DNA of 18,942 nt, from UHGV virus genome UHGV-0121731, one strand, 5' to 3'. Numbering within the stretch: position 1 is the first letter of the stretch; every line of letters begins with the position of its first letter. Source of the stretch: a virus. Under the pieces are notes generated by a model. The model did no database searches and was not told the origin of the DNA. It saw only the letters and a list, made by a program, of their open reading frames with translations. This document shows, in pieces, positions 6,423 through 18,942 of the stretch. Both the position numbers and the translations under genes were made by a program.

Positions 6423-6614
6423 ATGGAGTGGATTACACATATAATCACTTTCTTTGTCGGACTGGGAGCGGGTTGGTCGATTCGTGTCGTGTTTTCATCT
6501 AGAAAGCAAATTGGTGATTCCAGCGTGAACTCAAACAATCATACAGTTACTCAAACTGGTAACAGTGTTACAAATGGAAGTATTGTTGGCGGTAATCAGG
6601 ATAGGTCACATTAA
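6423..6614 (+). CDS. Small membrane protein (63 aa): one predicted TM helix plus an S/N/T/G-rich tail
   Basis: Good ribosome-binding site and ATG. Hydrophobic segment WITHIITFFVGLGAGWSIRVVF followed by a polar tail ending in the repeat GNSVTNGSIVGGNQ. First gene of the low-GC operon. Confidence 0.5.
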   Translation: MEWITHIITFFVGLGAGWSIRVVFSSRKQIGDSSVNSNNHTVTQTGNSVTNGSIVGGNQDRSH

Positions 6615-6625
6615 GAGGTGTTGGT

Positions 6626-7189
6626 GTGTCTATCGAACAGTCAGGAAATACCGTAACAAATGGCAACATAATTTCTGGTGATCAGACTAATCATATATTC
6701 AATTATCCTGTTAAAGGAACTAACAGGGAGATACAGAAACTTTATGAGTGTTTGAAGAGAGGTGATATAGGGGAAGCGGTTCCGGGGTTTTGTGCTGAAC
6801 TAGAGCATTATATGTCCCTTCAGCCTGATATTGATGTTCGGGGGTTAGACGCTAAATTACTCGAGAGTAATAGAAAAGATTTGTTGTTTTTAGCTAAGCA
6901 GATGAAGGAAAAAGCGACAAAAGCTATAATGCGTCGCCAGACGTCAAAAACTGCACAAAGAATATTTGTAATAATTTTAGATCAAATTCATTTTGATTTT
7001 ATAACGAAAGTAACACCACTTATAGAAGCGGATAGCTCCAGAGTGATTGTTGATGAGAAAATCGCTTCAATAATTGATGAATTATATTCGTCTTTGGGAG
7101 AAAACTTGCTAGAGCTAACAGCAAAAGATCTCTTGGGATTACTATTTTTTCTGGGTGGCAATTGCCATATAAGGTGGGATAAATGCTAA
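6626..7189 (+). CDS. Hypothetical protein (187 aa): N-terminal GNTVTNGNIISGDQ repeat and a helical C-terminal domain
   Basis: GTG start preceded by AGAGGTG. Its N-terminus repeats the C-terminal peptide motif of the upstream small ORF. Stop overlaps the next start (ATG at 7183). Confidence 0.55.
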   Translation: MSIEQSGNTVTNGNIISGDQTNHIFNYPVKGTNREIQKLYECLKRGDIGEAVPGFCAELEHYMSLQPDIDVRGLDAKLLESNRKDLLFLAKQMKEKATKAIMRRQTSKTAQRIFVIILDQIHFDFITKVTPLIEADSSRVIVDEKIASIIDELYSSLGENLLELTAKDLLGLLFFLGGNCHIRWDKC

Positions 7190-7683
7190 TTTACCATCCA
7201 GCATATGATGCATATCATTGTTTATTCAGAATGATTGCTCTTATAGACCATGTAAATGAAATTGAGGTAGATAAGGCCAGGATTTTGGACTTCTATCTGC
7301 TATTTCCTGCTTTGGTATCTGAAATTAGAATGCCTCATAATTATTCTTCAATGAAGAAAGAAGCGAAGAAGTATTCTAATATATATCGGGATCCTATTAA
7401 TGTTACATCTACATTCAGAGATATGTATGAAATTCAAATGGCAGCAATAAGATGTCTTGCAGCTACTGGGTTGGTTGAGATGGATTGTCTTGAGAAAAAC
7501 ATTATAAAGAGAACAGATAAGTCTGTTCCAGATGGCTTATTACTTTCTATTAATAATTTTATTAATACGAATAAAACTATTAATACATTTATCATAGACA
7601 CACTATCTAAATTCCATTTGGTTGGAAAAGATGGTTTAAAAGATAGAACGAAGTTAATGGAGTTTAGATATGACTATTCTTAA
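7183..7683 (+). CDS. Hypothetical small helical protein (166 aa); possible middle-component-like partner of the ATPase
   Basis: Overlaps both neighbours (translational coupling). No catalytic motif is recognisable by eye. Confidence 0.55.
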   Translation: MLIYHPAYDAYHCLFRMIALIDHVNEIEVDKARILDFYLLFPALVSEIRMPHNYSSMKKEAKKYSNIYRDPINVTSTFRDMYEIQMAAIRCLAATGLVEMDCLEKNIIKRTDKSVPDGLLLSINNFINTNKTINTFIIDTLSKFHLVGKDGLKDRTKLMEFRYDYS

Positions 7684-9607
7684 TCCATCTTTTTTTGTTA
7701 GTAAATTAAAAGTTTTCCAAGCTGGGCATGAAGCCTTTAGCTGTGTTTTCCATAAAGGGGTAAATGTAATAAGGGGGCGAAATAGCTCTGGCAAAACTAC
7801 TGTTATGGATCTTTTAGCATTTTCACTTGGTGCTGAAAATATTAGCTTGAAACCAACAGCTCTTTTATGTTCATTTACCATGGTTGAAGTGCTTTTGAAT
7901 AATAATCTTGCCTGTTTTAAGCGGGAGATAAGTTCAGAATCCATGCGACCGTTGAGTATTTTTTGGGGCTCGATGGATAAAGCTCTTAACTCATCACCGA
8001 GTCAGTGGCAAACTTATCCTTTTAAGCGTTCAGAAAAATCACTGAGTTTTTCTCAGGTAATTTTAAATGCTTTAGATATGCCTCTAGCTCAAGGAGAGGG
8101 TGCTTCAATTTTAACAATGCATCAAATCCTACGTGTATTATATGCAGATCAGCCATCTCTTCATAGTCCTATATTTAGGAACGATAATTTTGATAGAGCT
8201 CTAACACGAGAGACTATTGGTGATTATTTATGTGGTATATTTGATGACAAACTTTATAGCTCTTTGATTAGGCTTAAACAGGTTGATTCTGAACTTTCGA
8301 CAAAAATTGTTGAGCTGAAAAGCATATTTAAAGTTCTTGGACGCTCTGGGCAATCGCAGCATGTAAGTTTTATTGACGATAAAATAAAAGAGCTAAGAGA
8401 GAAGAAAGAAAAGATCAATGGCGAGCTTATCTCTCTCAAAGAGAGTAATAACTCTTCTGTTAATGATAAAAATGCTGATAAAACTAAAACTAACAACCTT
8501 CGAAAAAAATTAAATAAAGCGAAGGAAGAAGAAGTAAAAAATATTGATAGTATCCATATGTTAGAAATGGAGATAGCTGACTCTGAAATGTTCATTAATG
8601 AGTTAGAATCCAGATTGCGCTCTCTTAATGAATCAAGTATTGCCAGAGACTATTTTAGCAACGTTAAATTTCAATTTTGTCCCAGTTGTTTAAGTGAGTT
8701 GAATATTTCCTCTGAAAATGAGTGCTCATTATGTAAAAATCACGCGCCAGAGGGTAGTGATGCTCCTCAATTATTAAGGATGAAAAATGAGATTTCTATC
8801 CAATTAAAAGAATCCAGAGATCTTCTTGAGCATAATTATGTAAAACTGAGAGAGCTTAAGAGCCAATCTCCTGCTTTAAAGCAAAAAGTGCGAGATTTAA
8901 TTCGTGAATATGAAGAAGTCTCTAAGGTTTGGGAAAATGCCTATGAAATAGAGTTTGAAACTCTTACTAAGGCTCTGGGACGTGTTGAAGAAGAAATTAA
9001 ACAGGCTTGTGAATTACAAAAACTTAGTGATGTAATATCTGATTTGCAAAAAGAACGTGATAGTCTGCAGTTAGAGAAGGAGAGATTGTCCTCTTTAATT
9101 GAATCTTTGGAGAGTAAAGAGGAATATAGGAAGAAGGATATTTCTAAAACTATAGAAAAAATTATGAAAAGACTTCTTAAAAAAGATCTTCCATTGCAGA
9201 CTGAATTTATTGATCCCAGAAAAGTTAATTTTAGCTTTGCCGATAATACTGTTTATGTAAATGGGGCTAAGTATTTTTCAGAAAGTTCAGCAGTTGTATT
9301 AAGACATCTCTTTCATTTAGCATTGTTAACTGCAAGCATTGAAAAAAAATACATGAGATTACCTCGTTTCCTAATGCTTGATGGAATTGACGATGGTGGA
9401 ATGGAGAAAGAGCGCAGTCACAATCTGCAGAAAATAATAGTACAAGAAACTCAATCGTATCAATATGATTTTCAAATAATTTATGCGACATCGGAGATTA
9501 ATCCAGAATATGAAAATACCGATTTGATTGTTGGTCGGTATTTTAATCCAGATGATAAATCATTAAAGATAAATTATACCGCTCTTGATAAAGATTTATT
9601 GAACTAA
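7670..9607 (+). CDS. SMC/Rad50-like ABC ATPase (645 aa) with split head, long K/E-rich coiled coil and central CxxC-x14-CxxC hook
   Basis: Walker A GRNSSGKTT at residues 36-44 (nt 7775-7801). Central Cys pairs CPSC...CSLC at nt 8678-8734. K/E-rich heptad-like region across roughly residues 200-520. C-terminal Walker B-like FLMLDGIDDGG (about nt 9371-9400) followed by ERSH. No Toprim or other nuclease domain is appended. Confidence 0.75.
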   Translation: MTILNPSFFVSKLKVFQAGHEAFSCVFHKGVNVIRGRNSSGKTTVMDLLAFSLGAENISLKPTALLCSFTMVEVLLNNNLACFKREISSESMRPLSIFWGSMDKALNSSPSQWQTYPFKRSEKSLSFSQVILNALDMPLAQGEGASILTMHQILRVLYADQPSLHSPIFRNDNFDRALTRETIGDYLCGIFDDKLYSSLIRLKQVDSELSTKIVELKSIFKVLGRSGQSQHVSFIDDKIKELREKKEKINGELISLKESNNSSVNDKNADKTKTNNLRKKLNKAKEEEVKNIDSIHMLEMEIADSEMFINELESRLRSLNESSIARDYFSNVKFQFCPSCLSELNISSENECSLCKNHAPEGSDAPQLLRMKNEISIQLKESRDLLEHNYVKLRELKSQSPALKQKVRDLIREYEEVSKVWENAYEIEFETLTKALGRVEEEIKQACELQKLSDVISDLQKERDSLQLEKERLSSLIESLESKEEYRKKDISKTIEKIMKRLLKKDLPLQTEFIDPRKVNFSFADNTVYVNGAKYFSESSAVVLRHLFHLALLTASIEKKYMRLPRFLMLDGIDDGGMEKERSHNLQKIIVQETQSYQYDFQIIYATSEINPEYENTDLIVGRYFNPDDKSLKINYTALDKDLLN

Positions 9608-9612
9608 CAACC

Positions 9613-9640
9613 AAAACCATGCATAACCATGCATGGTTTT
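9613..9640 (+). terminator. Intrinsic terminator after the cargo operon
   Basis: Perfect hairpin AAAACCATGCAT-aacc-ATGCATGGTTTT starting 6 nt after the ATPase stop. The stem ends in a T-run on the + strand and an A-run precedes it, so it could terminate in both directions. Confidence 0.6.
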
Positions 9641-9740
9641 GCATTTATATCAGCTTGTTTTTGAATCGGGGCAAGTCCAGAGGTGGTAAGCTGTTTGGAG
9701 AAAACTGCAACTGCATTAAAACCGCCCCACGAAGCGGGCG

Positions 9741-9759
9741 GGCGAGGCGGGGAAAGCAC
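9741..9759. other. P2-type cos site (19-nt cohesive-end sequence GGCGAGGCGGGGAAAGCAC)
   Basis: Exact match to the P2 cohesive-end sequence as I remember it, located between the hotspot and portal gene Q as in P2 prophage maps. The sequence is recalled, not looked up. Confidence 0.6.
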
Positions 9760-9901
9760 TGCGCGCTGGCGGTGGTGCTGATTTTATTTTTTCAGCGTCT
9801 GAGCGCGTCGTGATGGCGTTTAGATTGTTAGCCGGGGCGTTGGTGTGTCTGCGGGCTGTTTTGTGCGGTGGTGAGCGTGTGAGGGCGTGATGGCGGGTTG
9901 T

Positions 9902-9923
9902 AAAAAAGCCGCCCGCAGGCGGC
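9902..9923 (-). terminator. Intrinsic terminator of the leftward P-Q transcript
   Basis: GCCGCC-cgca-GGCGGC hairpin (9908-9923) lying 5 nt downstream of the Q stop on the minus strand and followed on that strand by a run of six T (AAAAAA on + at 9902-9907). Confidence 0.6.
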
Positions 9924-9928
9924 GATGT

Positions 9929-10963
9929 TCAGCCGTTGTCAGTGTCCAGTGAGTAGTTTTTAAAGCGGATGACCTCCTGACCGAGCCAGCCGTTTATCTC
10001 GCGGATCCTGTCCTGTAACGGGATAAGCTCATTGCGGACAAAGACCTTTGCCACTTTCTCAATATCACCCAGCGACCCGACGTTCTCCGGCTTGCCCCCC
10101 ATCAACTGAAAGGGGATGCGGTGCGCGTCCAGCAGGTCAGCGGCGCTGGCTTTTTTGATATTAAAAAAATCGTCCTTCGTTGCCACTTCACTGAGCGGGA
10201 TAATTTTAATGCCGTCGGCTTTCCCCTGTGGGGCATAGAGAAACAGATTTTTAAAGTTATTGCGGCCTTTCGACTTAACCATGTTTTCGCGAAGCATTTC
10301 GATATCGTTGCGATCCTGCACGGCATCAGTGACGTACATGATGTATCCGGCATGTGCGCCGTTTTCGTAATACTTGCGGCGGAACAGCGTGGCCGACTCA
10401 TTCAGCCAGGCAGAGTTAAGGGCGCTGAGATATTCCGGCAGGCCGTACAGCTCCTGATTAATATCCGGCTCCAGCAGGTGAAACACGGAGCCGGGCGTGA
10501 AAGGTGTCGGCTCGTTGAAGGACGGCACCCACCAGTAAACATCCTCCTCCACCCCACGGCGGGTATATTTTGCCGGTGAGGTTTCCAGTCTGATGACCTT
10601 ACCGGTAGTGCTGTAACGCTTTTCCAGAAACGCATTACCGAACACCAGAAAATCCAGCACAAAGCGGCTGAAATCCTGCTGAGAAAGCCACGGATGCGGG
10701 ATAAATGTCGAGGCCAGAATATTGCGTTTGACGTAAATTGGTGAGCTGTGATGCACGGCAGCACGCAGGCTTTTTGCCAGACCGGTAAAGCTGACCGGTG
10801 GCTCATACCATCTGCCGTTACTGATGCACTCGACGTAATCCAGAATGTCACGGCGGTCGAGTACCGGCACCGGCTCACCAAAGGTGAATGCTTCCATTTT
10901 CGGGGCGCTGGCGGTCATTTTTTTTGCCGCAGGTTGCGGTGTTTTCCCTTTTTTCTTGCTCAT
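9929..10963 (-). CDS. Q: Portal protein, P2 gpQ family (344 aa)
   Basis: Length identical to P2 Q. Product starts MSKKKGKTPQPAAKK with a GGAG ribosome-binding site. Its start overlaps the stop of the upstream terminase remnant (TGATG), as in the P2 P-Q operon. Confidence 0.85.
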   Translation of the reverse strand: MSKKKGKTPQPAAKKMTASAPKMEAFTFGEPVPVLDRRDILDYVECISNGRWYEPPVSFTGLAKSLRAAVHHSSPIYVKRNILASTFIPHPWLSQQDFSRFVLDFLVFGNAFLEKRYSTTGKVIRLETSPAKYTRRGVEEDVYWWVPSFNEPTPFTPGSVFHLLEPDINQELYGLPEYLSALNSAWLNESATLFRRKYYENGAHAGYIMYVTDAVQDRNDIEMLRENMVKSKGRNNFKNLFLYAPQGKADGIKIIPLSEVATKDDFFNIKKASAADLLDAHRIPFQLMGGKPENVGSLGDIEKVAKVFVRNELIPLQDRIREINGWLGQEVIRFKNYSLDTDNG

Positions 10964-11235
10964 CAGTAAAACTCCAGAATGGTGGATGTCAGCGAGGTGC
11001 TGATACCGGCGGTGAGTGGCTCATTTAACAGGGCGTGCATGGTCGCCCAGGCGAGGTCGGCGTGGCTGGCTTCCTCGCTGCGGCTGGCCTCATAGGTGGC
11101 GCTGCGTCCGCTGCTGGTCATGGTCTTGCGGATAGCCATAAACGAGCTGGTGATGTCGGTGGCGCTGACGTCATATTCCAGACAGCCACGACGGATAACG
11201 TCTTTTGCCTTGAGCACCATTGCGGTTTTCATTTC
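10963..11235 (-). pseudogene. P: Terminase large subunit (P2 gpP family), C-terminal remnant only (about 90 codons of an expected ~590)
   Basis: The minus-strand frame ending ...SLTSTILEFY is coupled to the Q start as in P2, but the reading frame runs into the S remnant and V/W on the opposite strand within about 300 bp, so the 5' ~1.5 kb of P is absent. Confidence 0.7.
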
Positions 11236-11664
11236 CGGTGTGTGACCGGACTGATTGAATCGCTGTCACCGTCAGGGCGTCGGCGACTGAGCGCCGAACT
11301 GGCGAAACGTCTGCGTCAGAGTCAGCAGCGTCGGGTGATGGCACAGAAAGCCCCGGACGGCACACCCTACGCGCCACGCCAGCAGCAGAGCGCCAGAAAA
11401 AAGACTGGTCGTGTTAAGCGAAAAATGTTTGCGAAACTTATCACCAGTCGTTTTTTGCATATCCGCGCCAGCCCGGAACAGGCATCAATGGAATTTTACG
11501 GCGGGAAGTCGCCGAAAATCGCCAGTGTGCATCAGTTCGGTCTGTCGGAAGAAACCCGGAAAGACGGTAAGAAAATTGATTATCCGGCGCGTCCTCTGCT
11601 CGGCTTTACCGGTGAGGATGTGCAGATGATTGAAGAGATTATCCTGGCTCACCTCGACCGTTAG
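11236..11664 (+). pseudogene. S: Tail completion protein (P2 gpS family) lacking its start and first residues
   Basis: Frame reading ...LSPSGRRRLSAELAKRLRQSQQRRVMAQKAPDGTPYAPRQ... to a stop at 11664 resembles gpS-type proteins. No start codon or ribosome-binding site is present, and it abuts the terminase remnant on the other strand. Confidence 0.65.
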
Positions 11665-11696
11665 TTGTGCCATCCCCGACACCTCATCGTCACATT

Positions 11697-11718
11697 GCCG
11701 CCGGTATGACCCGGCGGC
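11697..11718 (+). terminator. GC-rich hairpin between the S remnant and V (GCCGCCGG-tatgac-CCGGCGGC); possible operon boundary element
   Basis: Perfect 8-bp GC stem with no clear U-tract, so terminator function is doubtful. Confidence 0.2.
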
Positions 11719-11730
11719 ATCCTTCCCGTT

Positions 11731-12366
11731 ATGAACACTCTCGCAAATATTCAGGAACTCGCGCGCGCACTGCGCAACATGATCCGCACCGGCGTTATCG
11801 TCGAAACCGACCTTAACGCCGGTCGCTGCCGTGTGCAGACCGGCGGCATGTGCACTGACTGGCTTCAGTGGCTGACCCATCGCGCCGGACGTTCGCGCAC
11901 ATGGTGGGCACCTTCCGTGGGGGAACAGGTGCTGATTCTGGCCGTGAGCGGTGAACTCGACACGGCGTTCGTTCTGCCGGGGATTTATTCCGGCGATAAC
12001 CCCGCGCCGTCTGCGTCGTCTGATGCCCTGCATATCCGTTTCCCTGACGGGGCGGTGATTGAATATGAACCCGAAACCAGTGCACTTACGGTAAGCGGAA
12101 TTAAAACGGCCAGCGTGACGGCTTCTGATTCTGTTACCGCCACGGTGCCGGTGGTCACGGTGAAAGCGTCAACCCGTGTCACCCTGGACACACCGGAAGT
12201 GGTCTGCACTAACAAACTGACTACCGGCACGCTGGAAGTGCAGAAGGGCGGGACGATGCGCGGCAACATTGAACACACCGGCGGTGAACTCTCATCAAAC
12301 GGTAAGGTACTGCATACCCATAAACACCCCGGCGACAGTGGCGGCACAACAGGGGGACCTCTATGA
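11731..12366 (+). CDS. V: Baseplate central spike protein, P2 gpV family (211 aa)
   Basis: Length identical to P2 V. N-terminus MNTLANIQELARALRNMIRTG and C-terminus HTHKHPGDSGGTTG match my recollection of gpV. Confidence 0.9.
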   Translation: MNTLANIQELARALRNMIRTGVIVETDLNAGRCRVQTGGMCTDWLQWLTHRAGRSRTWWAPSVGEQVLILAVSGELDTAFVLPGIYSGDNPAPSASSDALHIRFPDGAVIEYEPETSALTVSGIKTASVTASDSVTATVPVVTVKASTRVTLDTPEVVCTNKLTTGTLEVQKGGTMRGNIEHTGGELSSNGKVLHTHKHPGDSGGTTGGPL

Positions 12367-12710
12367 CTGCGCGTTATCTCGGAATGAATCGCAGTGATGG
12401 CCTGACGGTCACTGACCTTGAGCATATCAGCCAGAGTATCGGCGATATCCTGCGCACACCGGTCGGCTCACGGGTGATGCGTCGTGATTACGGCTCGTTG
12501 CTGGCGTCAATGATTGACCAGCCGCAGATCCCGGCGCTTGAGTTGCAGATTAAGGTCGCCTGTTACATGGCGGTGCTGAAATGGGAACCCCGCGTCACCC
12601 TGTCATCCGTCACCACGGCGCGCAGTTTTGACGGGCGAATAACGGTCACGTTAACCGGTCAGCACAACGACACCGGCCAGCCACTTTCGTTAACCATCCC
12701 TGTGAGTTGA
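12363..12710 (+). CDS. W: Baseplate wedge protein, P2 gpW family (115 aa)
   Basis: Same length as P2 W, with an ATGA-coupled start to V. Confidence 0.85.
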   Translation: MTARYLGMNRSDGLTVTDLEHISQSIGDILRTPVGSRVMRRDYGSLLASMIDQPQIPALELQIKVACYMAVLKWEPRVTLSSVTTARSFDGRITVTLTGQHNDTGQPLSLTIPVS

Positions 12711-12714
12711 AACC

Positions 12715-13623
12715 ATGCCGATTATCGACCTGAACCAGCTACCCGCACCGGATGTGGTCGAGGAGCTGGACTTTGAAACCATTCTTGCCGAACGCAAGGC
12801 GACACTGATTTCCCTTTACCCGGAAGACCAGCAGGAGGCGGTCGCCCGTACCCTGATGCTGGAATCTGAGCCTCTCGTCAAACTGCTGGAGGAAAATGCT
12901 TATCGTGAGCTTATCTGGCGTCAGCGTGTGAATGAGGCCGCACGGGCGGTAATGCTGGCCTGTGCCGCCGGTAATGACCTTGATGTGATTGGTGCCAATT
13001 ACAACACCACGCGCCTGATTATCACCCCGGCAGATGATTCGACTATCCCGCCGACACCGGCAGTGATGGAATCTGACACCGATTATCGTCTGCGTATTCA
13101 GCAGGCGTTTGAAGGTTTAAGCGTCGCCGGGTCAGTGGGAGCCTATCAGTATCATGGTCGCAGTGCCGACGGGCGTGTCGCGGATATCTCTGTCACCAGT
13201 CCGTCTCCGGCCTGTGTCACTATCTCTGTGCTGTCTCGCGAAAATAACGGTATCGCATCCGAAGACCTGCTGGCGGTGGTGCGCAACGCCCTTAATGGTG
13301 AGGACGTCAGGCCGGTGGCCGACCGCGTGACCGTGCAGTCTGCCGCCATCGTTGAATACCAGATAAACGCCACGCTTTACCTTTACCCTGGTCCTGAAAG
13401 CGAACCCATCCGCGCTGCTGCCGTGAAAAAACTGGAAGCGTACATCACGGCACAGCACCGGCTGGGGCGCGACATCCGTCTGTCTGCCATTTATGCCGCT
13501 TTGCATGTGGAAGGCGTGCAGCGTGTCGAGCTGGCCGCACCACTGGCCGACATTGTGCTCAACAGTACGCAGGCGTCTTTCTGCACCGAATACAGCGTCG
13601 TGACCGGAGGCTCGGATGAGTGA
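12715..13623 (+). CDS. J: Baseplate wedge protein, P2 gpJ family (302 aa)
   Basis: Same length as P2 J and correct position in the conserved V-W-J-I order. Confidence 0.85.
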   Translation: MPIIDLNQLPAPDVVEELDFETILAERKATLISLYPEDQQEAVARTLMLESEPLVKLLEENAYRELIWRQRVNEAARAVMLACAAGNDLDVIGANYNTTRLIITPADDSTIPPTPAVMESDTDYRLRIQQAFEGLSVAGSVGAYQYHGRSADGRVADISVTSPSPACVTISVLSRENNGIASEDLLAVVRNALNGEDVRPVADRVTVQSAAIVEYQINATLYLYPGPESEPIRAAAVKKLEAYITAQHRLGRDIRLSAIYAALHVEGVQRVELAAPLADIVLNSTQASFCTEYSVVTGGSDE

Positions 13624-14227
13624 TTCGCGCCTGCTGCCGACCGGCTCATCACCGCTTGAAGTCGCCGCCGCAAGAGCCTGTGCGGAAATTGAAAAAACGC
13701 CGGTCAGTATTCGTGAGCTGTGGAACCCGGATACCTGTCCGGCAAATCTGCTGCCGTGGCTGGCGTGGTCATTTTCGGTTGACCGCTGGGATGATAAGTG
13801 GCCGGAAGCGACAAAACGCGCTGTTATCCGCGATGCGTATTTCATTCACTGCCATAAGGGCACTATTGGTGCGATTCGCCGTGTGGTGGAGCCGCTCGGC
13901 TATCTGATTGAGGTGAGGGAGTGGTGGCAGCTCAACGAGGAGCCGGGGACGTTCCGCATCGTTGTTGGCGTGCTTGAGCAGGGTATTACCGAGGAAATGT
14001 ATCAGGAGCTGGAGCGTCTCGTTGCTGATGCAAAACCTGCAAGCCGCCATCTGACGGGACTGGCTATCAGTTTAAGTACAACCGGCAACATTTTTGTCGG
14101 TGCGGGATGCTATCACGGCGACGCCCTGACGGTTTATCCCTACACCCCGGAGGCCATTATTGTCGGAGGGGATTATTTCCCGGCCTCGGCCATTCATTTA
14201 ATTGATAACCTGAGAGTAAACGCATGA
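13616..14227 (+). CDS. I: Baseplate/tail protein, P2 gpI family (203 aa)
   Basis: Position in the conserved V-W-J-I-H order and overlapping start/stop with both neighbours. Confidence 0.75.
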   Translation: MSDSRLLPTGSSPLEVAAARACAEIEKTPVSIRELWNPDTCPANLLPWLAWSFSVDRWDDKWPEATKRAVIRDAYFIHCHKGTIGAIRRVVEPLGYLIEVREWWQLNEEPGTFRIVVGVLEQGITEEMYQELERLVADAKPASRHLTGLAISLSTTGNIFVGAGCYHGDALTVYPYTPEAIIVGGDYFPASAIHLIDNLRVNA

Positions 14228-15408
14228 CAGTGAAATACTACGCCATTCTGACTAATCAGGGCGCAGCACGGCTGGCTAACGCGACGATGCTCGGCAGTAA
14301 GCTGAATCTGACGCAAATGGCCGTTGGTGATGCGAATGGTGTCTTGCCGACACCAGACCCGGCACAGATAAAACTGATTAACCAGAAACGCATCGCGCCG
14401 CTGAATCTTCTGAGTGTTGACCCGAACAACCAGAGTCAGATTATTGCGGAGCAAATCATCCCTGAGAACGAGGGCGGATTCTGGATCCGTGAGATTGGGC
14501 TTTATGATGATGAAGGCGTACTCATTGCGGTGGCGAACTGCCCGGAAACGTACAAACCGCAGTTGCAGGAAGGCAGTGGTCGTACCCAGACTATCCGCAT
14601 GATTCTGGTTGTCACGAATACCGAAGCTATCACGCTGAAAATCGACCCGTCGGTGGTACTGGCGACCCGTAAATATGTGGATGATGAAGTCCTGGAATTA
14701 AGGCTGTATGTGGATGACCAGATGAGCAAACACATTGCCGCACAGGACCCTCATACCCAGTATGCACAGAAACATAATCCGACATTTACCGGAGAACCAA
14801 AAGCACCGACGCCTGCCGCAGGAAATAACACCACGCGGATTGCGACCACTGCGTTTGTACAGGCCGCTATTACCGCTCTGATTAACGGTGCGCCTGACAC
14901 GCTGGACACACTGAAAGAAATTGCCGCGGCCATTAACAATGACCCGAAATTCAGCACCACCATTAACAATGCGCTGGCAGGTAAACAACCGCTGGACAAT
15001 ACGCTGACTCATTTGAGTGGAAAGGATGTTGCCGGTCTTCTCGCATACCTTGGTTTGGGAGAAGCGGCGAAAAGGGATGTGGGCACAGGAGATAATCAGA
15101 TACCGGATATGGGAGCATTCGCTTCTGGTTCGGGATGGTTCAGGCTACCAGGTGGATATATTGTTCAGTTTGGCACTTTTGCAGGAAACACGACCCGCTT
15201 TATCAGTGGACACTTCCCTATACCATTCCCTAATCAGCCGATGGTTTCAGTCAGTGTTATGTCTGATGCCGTTCAGTCAGACCCGTCGATTCCTGCCCCG
15301 CAGGTTTTGTCTGTAAATTTTGAACATATCAGTAATTCAGCGTGGCGTGTGGCAACCAGTGATATCTCACAGCAATACAGATTCAGTTATATTTCGATAG
15401 GACGGTAG
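14224..15408 (+). CDS. H: Tail fibre protein (394 aa): constant N-terminal part (to about nt 15050) fused to the currently expressed variable C-terminal segment
   Basis: The N-terminus MTVKYYAILTNQGAARLANATMLGSKLNLTQMAVGDANG is the conserved tail-fibre N-domain of P2 H-type proteins. The invertase crossover site lies inside the ORF at 15038-15063. Confidence 0.85.
   Translation: MTVKYYAILTNQGAARLANATMLGSKLNLTQMAVGDANGVLPTPDPAQIKLINQKRIAPLNLLSVDPNNQSQIIAEQIIPENEGGFWIREIGLYDDEGVLIAVANCPETYKPQLQEGSGRTQTIRMILVVTNTEAITLKIDPSVVLATRKYVDDEVLELRLYVDDQMSKHIAAQDPHTQYAQKHNPTFTGEPKAPTPAAGNNTTRIATTAFVQAAITALINGAPDTLDTLKEIAAAINNDPKFSTTINNALAGKQPLDNTLTHLSGKDVAGLLAYLGLGEAAKRDVGTGDNQIPDMGAFASGSGWFRLPGGYIVQFGTFAGNTTRFISGHFPIPFPNQPMVSVSVMSDAVQSDPSIPAPQVLSVNFEHISNSAWRVATSDISQQYRFSYISIGR
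15038..15063. other. Left crossover site of the invertible segment (26 bp, TTCTCGCATACCTTGGTTTGGGAGAA)
   Basis: Imperfect dyad with the Hin/Gin-family site shape. Its right 14 bp (TTGGTTTGGGAGAA) are identical to the reverse complement of the site at 16914-16939. It encodes the LGLGE join in the fibre protein. Confidence 0.65.
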
Positions 15409-15410
15409 AA

Positions 15411-15851
15411 ATGCAGAAATATATTTTCAGTGCCGATAAAAATGCGTTTTTCCCTGTGGAGCTTAAAATCGCTTATCAGGAATCCGGCGAATGGCCCGAT
15501 GATGGAATCGAAATTGACGACACTGTTGCTGCCGAATTTATGAAGGAAGCACCAGAAGGAAAATACAGAGGTGTCATCGACGGAATGCCTGCATGGATTG
15601 ATATTCCACCGCCAACTCATGAGGAACAAATTGCCGCAGCCGAACTGAAAAAGCAGCAATTGATTAATCAGGTCAACGAATACATAAACAGTAAGCAATG
15701 GCCTGGTAAAGCGGCGATTGGTCGCCTGAAAGGTGAGGAACTGGTGCAATATAATTTGTGGCTGGATTATCTGGACGCACTGGAACTGGTCGATACTTCC
15801 GGTGCGCCAGATATTGAATGGCCTACGCCTCCGGCAGTTCAGGCCAGATGA
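15411..15851 (+). CDS. Tail fibre assembly chaperone for the current orientation (146 aa)
   Basis: Immediately follows the fibre gene. C-terminus LWLDYLDALELVDTSGAPDIEWP is the conserved tail-fibre-assembly C-terminal motif. Confidence 0.8.
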   Translation: MQKYIFSADKNAFFPVELKIAYQESGEWPDDGIEIDDTVAAEFMKEAPEGKYRGVIDGMPAWIDIPPPTHEEQIAAAELKKQQLINQVNEYINSKQWPGKAAIGRLKGEELVQYNLWLDYLDALELVDTSGAPDIEWPTPPAVQAR

Positions 15852-16425
15852 CATCAGGCGCGGTGCTGGTATCTGTTGCCTCCACCGCGTCAATGTAATC
15901 CAGCACAGCGTTAAGTCGGGTGGTTTCTGCCTGCGTCAGCTTCCGCCCGGCCCGTAATTTCATCTGAATCAGACTGATGGAAGCCATTGCAGCATCAATC
16001 AGCGACTGGCGCTTTGCTTCTGCCGCGTCTAGTGCGGCGCTATGCTGTGCCTCGGTATCCGTCACCCATTTCTCACCATCCCATTTATCGAATGGCGTTA
16101 ACGGGGCGATAGTGGTTGTATTTTCAGGGTAATCACCCGGAGCTGTGATTTCTTTCGATTCTCCTGTTTCGGTGCTATAGATGATTTCACCGCGATGGTC
16201 TGGTACATATTCCCATGAGTTAAAATCTGCAGAACGGCAGATTGCATAACCAGCTTTATGTGTAACTGGTGCATCTAAACAAGAACATGCCGGGATACCG
16301 ACGCCAACGGCAAGATATTCTGTTGATGATGAAATGTATTCCCGTGTCGTGTTGTCATAGTTATAGACGGTAATATCACCCGCTACTGTGGCAATAAATT
16401 CACTGTTTAATTTTGCCTGTGTCAT
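15823..16425 (-). CDS. Alternative tail fibre assembly chaperone (200 aa), convergent partner inside the invertible segment
   Basis: C-terminus LNAVLDYIDAVEATDTSTAPDVIWPELP shares the same chaperone motif. Its start overlaps the stop of the alternative fibre segment (TAATG). Confidence 0.8.
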   Translation of the reverse strand: MTQAKLNSEFIATVAGDITVYNYDNTTREYISSSTEYLAVGVGIPACSCLDAPVTHKAGYAICRSADFNSWEYVPDHRGEIIYSTETGESKEITAPGDYPENTTTIAPLTPFDKWDGEKWVTDTEAQHSAALDAAEAKRQSLIDAAMASISLIQMKLRAGRKLTQAETTRLNAVLDYIDAVEATDTSTAPDVIWPELPEA

Positions 16426-16926
16426 TATGCAGCCCTCACGATGTAGTTAAATGCAATGTTGCGCGGGCGGGTTTCAGTGCCAATATTCGCTGCATTGTCA
16501 GAAGCAACCCCACGAGTGCTGACAGCTCTTACTGCTGAAGGTAGGCTTTGAGGCTCCCGGTCAGTATAGGCAATCCCCCCATCCCCTCCAGTTGCTAGCG
16601 GAGCATAACTCCCGGCCTGACCAATAGTTGACGATGTTGTATTTGAACCTGTCCAGATCTGCTGGTTATGTGAGTGGTCTCTGAGTGAATGGCCTTGAGA
16701 TGAAAGCAGCGCACGCCCGTTGTCGATACCACGACTATCATCCCATCCACGAATAAACTCACCGCGTAAATCAGGTAATTTATTTGTTGGATAAGCCTTT
16801 GCCAGTTCCGGGTATTCTTCAGCAGAAAATGCCGCACCGTTGCATTTCAGCCAGCCTGTTGGCGGTGTGGCTGAAGGCCATGGAACAGGCACCCCAACAG
16901 GTAATGCTGAGCCTTCTCCCAAACCA
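16425..16926 (-). CDS. Alternative, currently silent tail-fibre C-terminal segment (tail-collar type); expressed only after inversion fuses it to the constant part of H
   Basis: The minus-strand frame crosses the right crossover site and continues ...GLGEGSALPVGVPVPWPSATPPTGWLKCNGAAFSAEEYPELAKAYP..LPDLRGEFIRGWDD, a classic tail-collar fibre motif. It has no promoter or start of its own; the ORF-track Met at 16967 lies outside the segment. Confidence 0.75.
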
Positions 16927-16939
16927 ACGTTTATGAAAA
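16914..16939. other. Right crossover site of the invertible segment (TTCTCCCAAACCAACGTTTATGAAAA)
   Basis: Reverse complement TTTTCATAAACGTTGGTTTGGGAGAA shares its right half exactly with the left site. It lies about 50 bp upstream of the invertase gene. Confidence 0.65.
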
Positions 16940-16988
16940 TGCAGAGATAACGGGCAAGTGGCATCATCTCCGGTTTTTATTCAGGGGG

Positions 16989-17588
16989 ATGCTCATGTTT
17001 ATTGGCTATGTACGCGTATCAACAAATGACCAGAACACGGAATTGCAGCGTAACGCGCTGGAATGCGCGGGATGTGAGCGGATTTTTGAGGACAAAATCA
17101 GCGGCACGAAGTCCGACAGGCCGGGACTGAAAAAACTGCTCAGGACATTATCGGAGGGGGATACACTGGTAGTCTGGAAGCTGGACCGGCTGGGGCGTAG
17201 TATGCGGCATCTGGTCATTCTGGTTGAGGAACTGCGCGAACGTGGCATTAATTTTCGCAGCCTGACGGATGCTATTGATACCAGCACGCCGATGGGGCGT
17301 TTTTTCTTTCATGTGATGGGTGCCCTGGCTGAAATGGAACGAGAACTCATTGTCGAGCGGACTCGGGCCGGGCTGGAAGCGGCCAGAGCCAAAGGTCGTA
17401 TTGGTGGCAGACGTCCTAAACTCACCACGAGTGAGTGGGAGCAGGCCGGGCGTTTGCTGGCTGCAGGGGAGTCACGTCAACGCGTGGCACTGATTTTTGA
17501 TATTGGTCTGTCCACGCTCTATAAAAAATTTCCCTCATCAGCGACAAAGAATAAATTGTGTCATCCCTTAGCCAACCGGGACAAATAG
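16989..17588 (+). CDS. Serine DNA invertase, Gin/Hin/Pin/Cin family (199 aa; alternative ATG at 16995)
   Basis: MLMFIGYVRVSTNDQNTELQRNALECAGCERIFEDKISGTKSDRPGLKKLL...GRIGGRRPKLT is near-identical in pattern to Gin/Pin, with catalytic Ser in the VRVSTNDQ motif and a C-terminal helix-turn-helix. Confidence 0.9.
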   Translation: MLMFIGYVRVSTNDQNTELQRNALECAGCERIFEDKISGTKSDRPGLKKLLRTLSEGDTLVVWKLDRLGRSMRHLVILVEELRERGINFRSLTDAIDTSTPMGRFFFHVMGALAEMERELIVERTRAGLEAARAKGRIGGRRPKLTTSEWEQAGRLLAAGESRQRVALIFDIGLSTLYKKFPSSATKNKLCHPLANRDK

Positions 17589-17647
17589 CCTGACATCTCC
17601 GGCACAACTGAAAATATCACTCACCCATTAACCACGGAGTTAAACGG

Positions 17648-18028
17648 ATGAGTGACTATCATCACGGCGTGCAGGTGCTGGAGATTAACGACGGCACCCG
17701 CGTCATTTCCACCGTATCCACTGCCATTGTCGGCATGGTCTGCACGGCCAGCGATGCGGATGCGGAAACCTTCCCCCTCAATAAACCGGTGCTGATTACC
17801 AATGTGCAGAGTGCAATTGCAAAGGCTGGTAAAAAAGGCACGCTGGCGGCGTCGTTGCAGGCCATCGCTGACCAGTCAAAACCGGTCACCGTTGTCGTGC
17901 GTGTGGAAGACGGCACCGGCGAAGACGAGGAAACGAAACTTGCGCAGACCGTTTCCAATATCATCGGCACCACCGACGAAAACGGCCAGTACACCGGACT
18001 GAAAGCCCTGCTGGCGGCGGAGTCGGTA
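17648..18028 (+). pseudogene. FI: Tail sheath protein (P2 gpFI family), N-terminal ~127 codons only
   Basis: [31 protein letters not shown]... matches the gpFI N-terminus as I remember it, but the frame stops after 146 codons; a full sheath is about 396 aa. Resemblance is lost after ...LLAAESV at about 18028. Confidence 0.7.
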
Positions 18029-18029
18029 A

Positions 18030-18179
18030 GACACCGAGTCGAAAATCTCCGTGGTCTGCACCTATTTCCGGTTGACGATGGACGGTAAGGAGCTGGTCGA
18101 AATCGACACCATCAACATGATTGAGAAGGTGAACGGCGTCGACCGGCTGGAGCAACACCGCCGCAATATCGGCCTGTGA
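18030..18179 (+). pseudogene. FII: Tail tube protein (P2 gpFII family), C-terminal ~49 codons only
   Basis: A different frame reads [49 protein letters not shown] to a stop at 18177-18179, about 56 bp upstream of E, which is where the tube gene ends in P2. There is no start codon. Identity rests on position and on recollection of the tube C-terminus. Confidence 0.5.
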
Positions 18180-18235
18180 TTTTCATACGGTCAGCCAGGC
18201 TGACCGGTTAACCCTGATTCAGAAGTGAGAAAACC

Positions 18236-18511
18236 ATGAACAAAGAAAATGTCATTACCCTGGAAAATCCGGTCAAACGTGGTGAGCAGGTTATCGAACA
18301 GGTCACGCTGATGAAACCCAGTGCCGGGACGCTGCGCGGTGTCAGTCTGGCTGCGGTTGCAAACTCCGAAGTCGATGCACTGATTAAGGTACTGCCGCGC
18401 ATGACGGCACCGATGCTGACCGAGCAGGAGGTCGCCGCGCTGGAACTGCCTGACCTTGTGGCGCTGGCCGGTAAGGTGGTCGGTTTTTTGTCGCCGAACT
18501 CGGTGCAGTGA
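18236..18511 (+). CDS. E: Tail assembly chaperone, P2 gpE family (91 aa)
   Basis: Same size as P2 E, with the slippery heptamer near its 3' end and the tape-measure start overlapping downstream. Confidence 0.85.
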   Translation: MNKENVITLENPVKRGEQVIEQVTLMKPSAGTLRGVSLAAVANSEVDALIKVLPRMTAPMLTEQEVAALELPDLVALAGKVVGFLSPNSVQ

Positions 18512-18663
18512 CGTTTCCGAAAAATCTGTCGGTCGATGACCTGATGGCGGATGTGGCAGTGATATTTCACTGGCCGCCATCAGAACTGTATCCCATGAGC
18601 CTGACCGAACTCATCACATGGCGCGAAAAGGCGCTCCGGCGAAGCGGAAACACGAATGAGTAA
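18236..18663 (+). CDS. E+E' frameshift fusion product (tail chaperone extension)
   Basis: Joining the E frame to the -1 frame at 18484-18490 gives a continuous product ending at TAA 18661-18663, which overlaps the tape-measure ATG at 18656 as in P2. Confidence 0.6.
18484..18490 (+). promoter_or_regulatory. Programmed -1 ribosomal frameshift site T_TTT_TTG producing E+E'
   Basis: A canonical X_XXY_YYZ heptamer in the E frame. The -1 frame is open from here to 18663 and reads VAELGAVTFPKNLSVDDLMADVAVIFHWPPSELYPMSLTELITWREKALRRSGNTNE. Confidence 0.7.
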
Positions 18664-18892
18664 CAATGTAAAATTACAGGTATTGCTCAGGGCTGTTGAC
18701 CAGGCATCCCGCCCATTTAAATCCATCCGTACAGCGAGTAAGTCGCTGTCGGGGGATAAGCGCGTCATAGACGAGCAGGACTGGACAATCACTAAGGTGA
18801 CACATTTTCTGAATAATAGCGGCTTCACGACGTCCCTGGAGCTTGAGGTCAGGCTTTCTGATGTGGAGTACGAAACAGAAGATGATGAGTGA
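18656..18892 (+). pseudogene. In-frame fusion remnant: tape-measure (gpT) N-terminal ~34 codons joined to the gpD C-terminal ~44 codons
   Basis: MSNNVKLQVLLRAVDQASRPFKSIRTASKSLSGD has the gpT start character, but the ORF is only 78 aa; a tape measure is over 800 aa. The tail ...WTITKVTHFLNNSGFTTSLELEVRLSDVEYETEDDE is followed by AT-rich non-coding DNA as expected after the last tail gene D. The D assignment is from memory and position. Confidence 0.55.
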
Positions 18893-18942
18893 TGTATTTA
18901 TTTTATCTGTTTGTTTTATAAGGATAAATTAACTAAAATGGC

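Follow-up and report, generated by a model that had tools for sequence, protein, structure and literature searches.

A probable P-segment/G-segment-type invertible tail-fibre module in a recently inactivated P2-like prophage of Escherichia coli

The virus genome UHGV-0121731, a stretch of 18,942 nucleotides that was analysed over its whole length and is called the window here, carries a gene for a putative DNA invertase beside two alternative tail-fibre ends, in a prophage that has lost structural and lysis genes. This raises the question of whether such a switch has gone on inverting in a phage that can no longer make particles and, if so, which enzyme would operate it and to what use. Our reading, to which we give a probability of about 90%, is that the locus is a P-segment/G-segment-type invertible tail-fibre module in a recently inactivated P2-like prophage of E. 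coli. The evidence includes public copies of the same dead prophage in which the segment lies in opposite orientations.

Crossover sites, fibre ends and invertase

Within positions 13000-18942, the longest and strongest inverted repeat was that formed by the arms 15038-15064 and 16913-16939 (27 nt, 81% complementary, 1,848 nt apart). These arms hold two putative crossover sites that enclose the following features, with the invertase gene just outside.

14224-15408, plus strand: tail-fibre gene H (P2 gpH-like), 394 amino acids in the present orientation; Pfam Phage_tail_fib over residues 1-150 (1e-61) and Gp53-like_C over residues 307-394
14224-15050, plus strand: constant part of the fibre
15051-15408, plus strand: variable tip Sv, a gp53-like C-terminal domain
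15038-15063: left crossover site (pixL/gixL-like), TTCTCGCATACC-TT-GGTTTGGGAGAA, within the fibre reading frame; predicted crossover dinucleotide at 15050-15051
15051-16926: invertible segment, 1,876 bp between the two crossover centres
15411-15851, plus strand: chaperone of Sv (TfaP-like, 146 amino acids); Pfam Caudo_TAP 9e-34, 56% identical to e14 TfaP
15823-16425, minus strand: chaperone of Sv' (TfaE-like, 200 amino acids); Pfam Caudo_TAP 2e-32, 88.5% identical to e14 TfaE
16425-16967, minus strand: open reading frame (ORF) of the alternative tip Sv' (Collar), counterpart of e14 stfE; Pfam Collar 1e-15, 62% identical to the e14 StfE fragment
16914-16939: right crossover site, TTCTCCCAAACC-AA-CGTTTATGAAAA; predicted crossover dinucleotide at 16926-16927
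16995-17588, plus strand: DNA invertase, a small serine recombinase (Pin/Gin/Cin/Hin), 197 amino acids; Pfam Resolvase 7.6e-53 and HTH_7 (residues 140-183, 8.7e-13)

In each of the two 26-bp sites the half-site TTCTCNNAAACC was repeated as an imperfect palindrome on either side of a central dinucleotide, and TTGGTTTGGGAGAA was common to both sites. On the plus strand the central dinucleotides read TT (left) and AA (right); when aligned as inverted repeats, the two sites agree in this dinucleotide. When all 18.9 kb were scanned for full sites with the palindromic consensus TTCTCNNAAACCNNGGTTTNNGAGAA, the two sites scored 19/20 and 18/20, against 13/20 for the next-best position in the window and 16/20 for the best of 200 shuffled controls; the half-site pattern was matched 5 times where 1.24 matches were expected. 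As there were exactly two sites, the arrangement is that of a two-state switch and not of a shufflon, and a third site, of the kind present in one P2-like prophage of enteropathogenic E. coli (EPEC), was ruled out by the same scan. The left site also occurs in pro483, OW1E2 and BUCT2930. On these features we class both as crossover sites of the Gin/Pin type, and the repeat search and site scoring thereby bore out the proposal of a first-pass annotation that two inverted 26-bp sites with a shared core lie here with about 1.9 kb between them.

One of the sites lies inside the fibre gene at ...AYLGLGE, so inversion would exchange the fibre tip together with the chaperone gene behind it. In the present orientation the junction reads ...AYLGLGE-AAKRDVGTG... 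and the fibre is 394 amino acids long, as it also is in public gene calls; its N-terminal part is 46% identical to P2 gpH. Flipping 15051-16926 in silico joined ...AYLGLGE in frame to GSALPVGVPVPWP... and gave a fibre of 442 amino acids followed by the 200-amino-acid chaperone, and the longer fibre has been called as a real gene in three of the loci that we recovered from public data (L100, L102 and L103; recovered loci carry L numbers throughout). The constant N-terminal part is thus open in frame to either of two opposed C-termini, each of which has its own chaperone gene behind it, one on each strand. That inversion swaps the C-terminus in frame had been suggested before and was corroborated by the flip and the gene calls, while the convergent second set of tip and chaperone on the minus strand was confirmed by its ORFs and Pfam domains. 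The coding part of Sv' itself spans 16425-16925; it is presently joined to an 18-amino-acid leader that begins outside the segment (16926-16967).

Two further features of the chaperone genes were observed. Their convergent 3' ends share 29 nt (15823-15851), an overlap also annotated in relatives, and an internal inverted repeat (15761-15784 and 15881-15904, 79%) stems from the homologous chaperone C-termini encoded on opposite strands.

The enzyme gene had been recognised in the first pass as a Gin/Pin-like serine invertase just outside the segment; this stood, with only its start refined, from 16989 to the 16995 used in public gene calls. The protein has a catalytic domain of the resolvase type, in which the serine nucleophile (Ser9 in Gin) and the conserved Arg/Asp residues are present, a C-terminal helix-turn-helix and a length in the range of about 180-200 amino acids. 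It matched the structures of Mu Gin (3UJ3 and 4M6F) with E = 1e-94 over residues 1-182, whereas the gamma-delta and Tn3 resolvases scored only 1e-33 to 1e-28, so that it is closer to characterised invertases than to resolvases. In the alignment to Gin (4M6F) the segments GYVRVSTNDQ (with the YVRVS nucleophile motif), KLDRLGRS and MERELIVERT were conserved and M114 was the wild-type residue. Identity was 86% to PinE, 80% to Gin and 78% to Cin, and 97% and 85% to the invertases of pro483 and Fels-2, respectively; among GTDB representative genomes the best match had 87% amino acid identity. From this likeness in sequence we assign the protein to the Pin/Gin family. A 16-amino-acid C-terminal tail (SSATKNKLCHPLANRDK) has no match in Gin, Pin or most relatives. 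The gene ends 59 nt ahead of the sheath gene, at the place of the Ogr-activated pF promoter of P2; inspection of this region (within 17540-17647) by eye did not find a TGT-N12-ACA activator site.

Inversion and the death of the prophage

The window is collinear with pro483 (NC_028943) at about 97% identity, apart from cargo genes and three deletions, and it follows the P2 gene order int-C-cox-B-A ... Q P / O N M L ... V W J I H G ... FI FII E T U D ogr. Beyond the end of the window, in L087, come ogr and then pflB-focA-ycaO-serC-aroA, 99.9-100% identical to E. coli chromosomes. Taken together, these comparisons identify the element as a P2-like (Peduovirus, pro483-like) prophage of E. coli, inactivated recently by the three internal deletions. 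The deletions and the gene that marks the dead prophage are as follows.

Deletion 1, pro483 8633-16076 (7.4 kb), junction at 11243: most of terminase P, then O, N, M, L, X, the lysis genes, R and the start of S
Deletion 2, pro483 22891-24078 (1.2 kb), junction at 18028: most of FI and FII
Deletion 3, pro483 24810-28675 (3.9 kb), junction at 18757: T, U and most of D
17648-18088, plus strand: truncated sheath gene, 146 amino acids, the FI N-terminus (to codon ~126) fused out of frame to the end of FII

Relative to pro483, 12.5 kb of structural and lysis genes have been lost at junctions that show 1-2 nt of microhomology each and no insertion sequence element. The losses comprise the major capsid protein, the scaffold, both terminase subunits (of the large one, just a C-terminal fragment is left), lysis, sheath, tube and tape measure. 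Because these genes are gone, heads, sheath, tube and tape measure cannot be built and the prophage is dead; the deletion map, with its absent capsid gene and truncated sheath gene, agrees with the earlier statement that neither capsid nor sheath can be made. Use of the remnant as a tailocin was ruled out in the same way, as sheath, tube, tape measure, U and D are deleted. Intact prophages exist that are 99.95% identical to the window over 6.8 kb (3 mismatches); the deletions must therefore be very recent, and selection is not needed to explain an intact module. None of the complete RefSeq E. coli genomes had the same deletions.

Copies of the dead prophage were recovered by look-ups of exact proteins in public assemblies and metagenomes. 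Most of them (L087-L092 and L094) matched the window at 100% identity and shared its orientation. Two isolates, however, proved to be opposed to each other: L099 (GCA_012702095.1) and L103/L110 (GCA_049871205.1) carry the same dead prophage with the same deletions at the same pflB site and with the same flank, and over 12,594 nt they show no difference outside 15051-16926, while the 1,876-bp segment of one is the exact reverse complement of that of the other (0 mismatches). L103 encodes the 442-amino-acid fibre, has the gp53-like ORF on the minus strand beside the invertase, and equals the window flipped in silico over 7,948 nt with a single mismatch, which lies outside the segment. The exchange occurred within both sites, consistent with crossover at the central dinucleotides. 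Since a deletion arises on a single chromosome, and the same three deletions are found with opposite orientations, at least one inversion must have taken place after the death of the prophage. Inversion of the flanked segment was thus established by genome comparison (L099 against L103, and L103 against the in-silico product) and not by biochemistry.

Other copies and relatives pointed the same way. A metagenome scaffold (L093) with the same right-hand deletions was flipped, and intact relatives at least 99.9% identical exist both ways (L100 flipped, L101 and L104 not). In E. coli BUCT2930 an intact prophage was found at the same pflB site with a segment 99.9% identical but inverted, between flanks that are about 97% identical. 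Among complete E. coli genomes, the window-type left junction occurred in 35 and the predicted flipped junction in 440.

The two orientations might in principle be assembly artefacts, or the outcome of RecA-dependent recombination between the repeats in place of site-specific inversion. Some short-read contigs do stop in the crossover sites or less than about 50 nt from them (L090 starts at 16929, L113 ends at 15079 and L092 starts at 16873), as would be expected if assemblers struggle there. However, the repeat shared by the two sites is only about 18 bp long (15047-15064 and 16913-16930), a length that reads and k-mers exceed and that is too small for RecA to recombine efficiently; both junctions of L103 are contiguous, and L103 is the predicted product of exchange at the central dinucleotides, with no mismatch. 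Both orientations also recur in independent complete genomes and phage records. We regard this explanation as very improbable indeed. The same contig ends near the sites may reflect mixed orientations within one culture.

Site-specific inversion of the segment in the dead prophage is accordingly preferred, and the comparative proof that it followed the crippling of the phage is the new element added here: a site-specific switch can outlive its phage. The two isolates that differ only by the inversion are a clean natural example, and the segment is a true phase-variable locus: E. coli assemblies that are identical elsewhere will differ in it, and it can interrupt contigs built from short reads. 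The first-pass suggestion that the switch may still flip in a dead phage holds in so far as an inversion followed the deletions; the agent, named there as the local invertase, may be that enzyme or a relative acting in trans. Its further claim, that inversion changes host range, fails for this element alone, because no particles are made: the copy in the window cannot release virions, and no virion can be built in which a switched fibre would serve. In the intact relatives inversion would be expected to change host range.

Several observations concerned the ancestry of the module and of the deletions. In BUCT2930 it is the segment that is closer to the window than the flanks are; in L102 the flanks are 99.9% and the segment 95% identical; and L097 shares Sv and the 146-amino-acid chaperone (99.1%) and has a different Sv'. 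This pattern indicates that the cassettes probably evolve apart from the backbone, by exchange between prophages. The tips come from a shared pool: both occur at 95-98% amino acid identity in records of P2-like phages, for example the Kp4845-2 series, and the side-fibre ends of HK97 and HK106 match Sv' at 55-60% identity. Neither Mu S/S' nor the C-terminus of P2 H showed similarity to the tips. The Kp4845-2 records (OK490395 etc.) are labelled as Klebsiella pneumoniae phages and carry both tips in the flipped orientation with an invertase 85% identical to that of the window, so that either the same cassette pair circulates across genera or the host labels of these records are loose. At deletion 1, the exact 140-amino-acid truncated S' product (11242-11664) was found behind at least five different left flanks in P2-like remnants (L106-L115), namely a P fragment, lysB, a truncated O, a P/O start and a truncated L. 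All of those deletions end within about 5 nt at codon 10 of S, in GACCGGCTGACCGGACTG, a convergence that is due either to a hot spot for deletions or to the way in which looking up exact proteins selects the hits.

Agent and possible use of the switch

The 5' end of the invertase gene could be aligned without gaps to the annotated Cin enhancer of P1 (cin nt 19-90), which gave the following candidates.

17013-17084: putative Fis-dependent recombinational enhancer, in the 5' end of the invertase gene
17017-17031: candidate Fis core I, TATCAACAAATGACC, identical to the Mu core
17065-17079: candidate Fis core II, GCGCGGGATGTGAGC, 1 nt different from the P1 core

The Fis cores were placed by this alignment together with the sequence of hin. 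Over the 72 nt the stretch is identical to P1 at 58 positions and to Mu at 54, and P1 and Mu agree at 55, a conservation that is in part imposed by the coding function. The centres of the two candidate cores lie 48 bp apart and about 97 bp from the centre of the right crossover site. For Hin the enhancer is about 100 bp from the nearest site, and ATTTA and TAATG are named between the two Fis sites of hin (PMC3798978), in agreement with the hin sequence used for the placement. We infer from this resemblance that inversion would depend on Fis and the enhancer.

According to the mechanism that we propose, invertase dimers would bind the two 26-bp sites with the assistance of Fis on the enhancer in the 5' end of the invertase's own gene, both sites would be cut at the central AA/TT dinucleotide, and strand rotation would invert the 1,876 bp. 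With one site inside the fibre gene, the inversion would swap the tip and the chaperone behind it: the present state would combine the constant part with the gp53-like tip and the 146-residue chaperone (Tfa146), and the flipped state the constant part with the Collar tip and the 200-residue chaperone (Tfa200).

A number of points weigh against this reading, and with them has to be considered the alternative that the local invertase is silent or inactive and that the difference in orientation was made by another invertase of the Pin/Gin family acting in trans. No sigma-70 consensus promoter was found upstream of the invertase gene in strict or relaxed scans, and expression of the enzyme is assumed in our reading; this absence also speaks for the alternative, although invertases of this family are known for weak promoters. 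Members of the subfamily also act on one another's sites, as Fin does on hix. Matches to the query were present in 4,085 of 5,426 complete E. coli genomes, with a median of 2 homologous places per genome, and in e14 the segment is inverted more by PinQ of the Qin prophage than by PinE, a documented case of cross-reactivity (PMC12529663). With cross-acting enzymes of the subfamily and two homologous places in the median E. coli genome, an enzyme in trans could therefore have made the flip. Finally, the contig ends mentioned above could not be accepted as proof of mixed orientations within a sample, as their positions are off the expected branch points of the assembly graph, and they were kept as suggestive only. 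On the other hand, the local invertase ORF is full length, its catalytic and DNA-binding motifs are all identical to those of Gin, the exact protein is also encoded in intact prophages and the enhancer region is conserved. We consequently regard an agent in trans as unlikely, though the most serious of the alternatives raised here. The local enzyme is presumably expressed and presumably catalysed the flip, and the module is most simply seen as a still functional remnant that decay has not yet reached.

A different question is whether the dead prophage has put the switch to some use. In e14, inversion of the P segment creates StfE2, in which a leader from the invertase side is joined to the gp53-like end of StfP, and StfE2 blocks the adsorption of T2 (Kirigo et al. 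2025, PMC12529663). By analogy, the switch of the window prophage might have been co-opted: in the flipped state it would yield a free StfE2-like protein of 132 amino acids that blocks adsorption of other phages, and the host would keep the switch for defence. Besides the published precedent, the layout of the flipped window speaks for this, since the minus-strand leader ORF (start at 16967) is there fused to the gp53-like tip in the positional counterpart of StfE2, with the leader reading MMPLARYLCIFINVGLGE where that of e14 reads MPFACYFFIFINVGLGE, and a Gp53-like_C gene of 132 amino acids has been called in L100 and L103. The dead prophage has, moreover, retained cargo reminiscent of defence genes:

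6423-9607, plus strand: putative defence cargo between gpA and the portal gene, in the place of the DUF4238 gene of pro483

Its ORFs encode 63 amino acids, a CTD9 protein of 187, an MC5 'middle component' of 166 and an LmuB-like SMC/ABC ATPase of 645 amino acids (PADLOC LmuB, 7e-47). They make up a three-gene defence system of the ABC-3C/Lamassu type, which is located at the defence hotspot of P2 and has stayed intact in the dead prophage.

Other results told against co-option. Given the near-identical intact prophages described above, the decay is too recent for the intactness of the switch to imply selection. The gp53-like domain shares only 29% identity with its counterpart in e14 StfE2, the leader ORF has no promoter-like site upstream in the strict and relaxed scans, its Shine-Dalgarno spacing is poor (GGAG lies 0-3 nt from two ATG codons), and most assemblies of the dead prophage sit in the orientation that would not make the StfE2-like protein. 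Co-option as an anti-phage device is thus possible and a legitimate hypothesis with a published precedent, the case for it being limited to a shared architecture, and we think it improbable. Equally little credence is given to the broader idea that the dead prophage has been kept in part through an StfE2-like block, or through its invertase and fibre cassettes serving co-resident P2-like phages in trans. Were co-option true, the single case of e14 and PinQ would be extended to a second, unrelated class of prophage remnant; and if defence of the StfE2 type were general, remnants like the window prophage would be candidates for it.

Comparison with known invertible segments

The closest characterised system is the P segment of e14, a cryptic lambdoid prophage of E. 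coli K-12, with its invertase PinE. Its layout, stfP/ycfK-tfaP, convergent tfaE-stfE and then pinE, has the same gene order and orientation as the window; its right site is identical to that of the window, while 3 of the 26 nt differ in its left site; and a leader ORF enters from the invertase side in the same arrangement. Both elements are defective prophages that still invert. Unlike e14, the window holds the remnant of a P2-like myovirus with a gpH-like constant fibre part (Phage_tail_fib), its gp53-like tip is only about 29% identical to the StfP/StfE2 tip, and its invertase has the 16-amino-acid C-terminal tail that PinE lacks. Judged by its parts, the module can be described as one of the Pin/P-segment type set on a fibre of the P2 type. 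PinE and PinQ have been reported to invert the e14 P segment (PMC12529663), and inversion in cultures has been shown for e14 and for the EPEC P2-like prophages (PMC4272514).

The system in which PinQ gives rise to the StfE2 adsorption block (Kirigo et al. 2025, PMC12529663) has the same repeat core, TTGGTTTGGGAGAAG, as the window, and its flipped state makes the same kind of leader plus gp53-like ORF, although the effector domain is only distantly related and the window has no enzyme of the PinQ type. The G segment of Mu with Gin and the C segment of P1 with Cin work on the same principle: alternative Sv/U and Sv'/U' sets go with a constant Sc, the invertase is encoded outside the segment, and the 5' end of its gene holds an enhancer, for which the window has the candidate described above. 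The Mu site sequence TTCCTGTAAACCGAGGTTTTGGATAA differs from the sites of the window, Mu U' is only weakly similar to the chaperones of the window, and the segment, at 1.9 kb, is shorter than those of Mu (about 3 kb) and P1 (about 4.2 kb).

Among P2-like phages, pro483, Fels-2 (Fin) and the P2-like prophages of EPEC E2348/69 have their invertase gene placed between the fibre and sheath genes. In P2 the G-FI interval is occupied by the conversion gene fun(Z), whereas in the window and in pro483 it holds the second cassette and the invertase; one of the EPEC prophages is a three-site shufflon, while the window has two sites only. In the nearest of these relatives, pro483, the backbone is the same (97% identity at the DNA level), both sites recur and the invertase is 97% identical, but the tips differ (Sv 36% and Sv' 58% identical to those of the window). 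As a discovery the module itself offers little: it is a textbook invertase switch, of a kind already known, whose arrangement had been sequenced before in the phages pro483 and Fels-2, and in essence pro483 and other P2-like prophages carry the same module.

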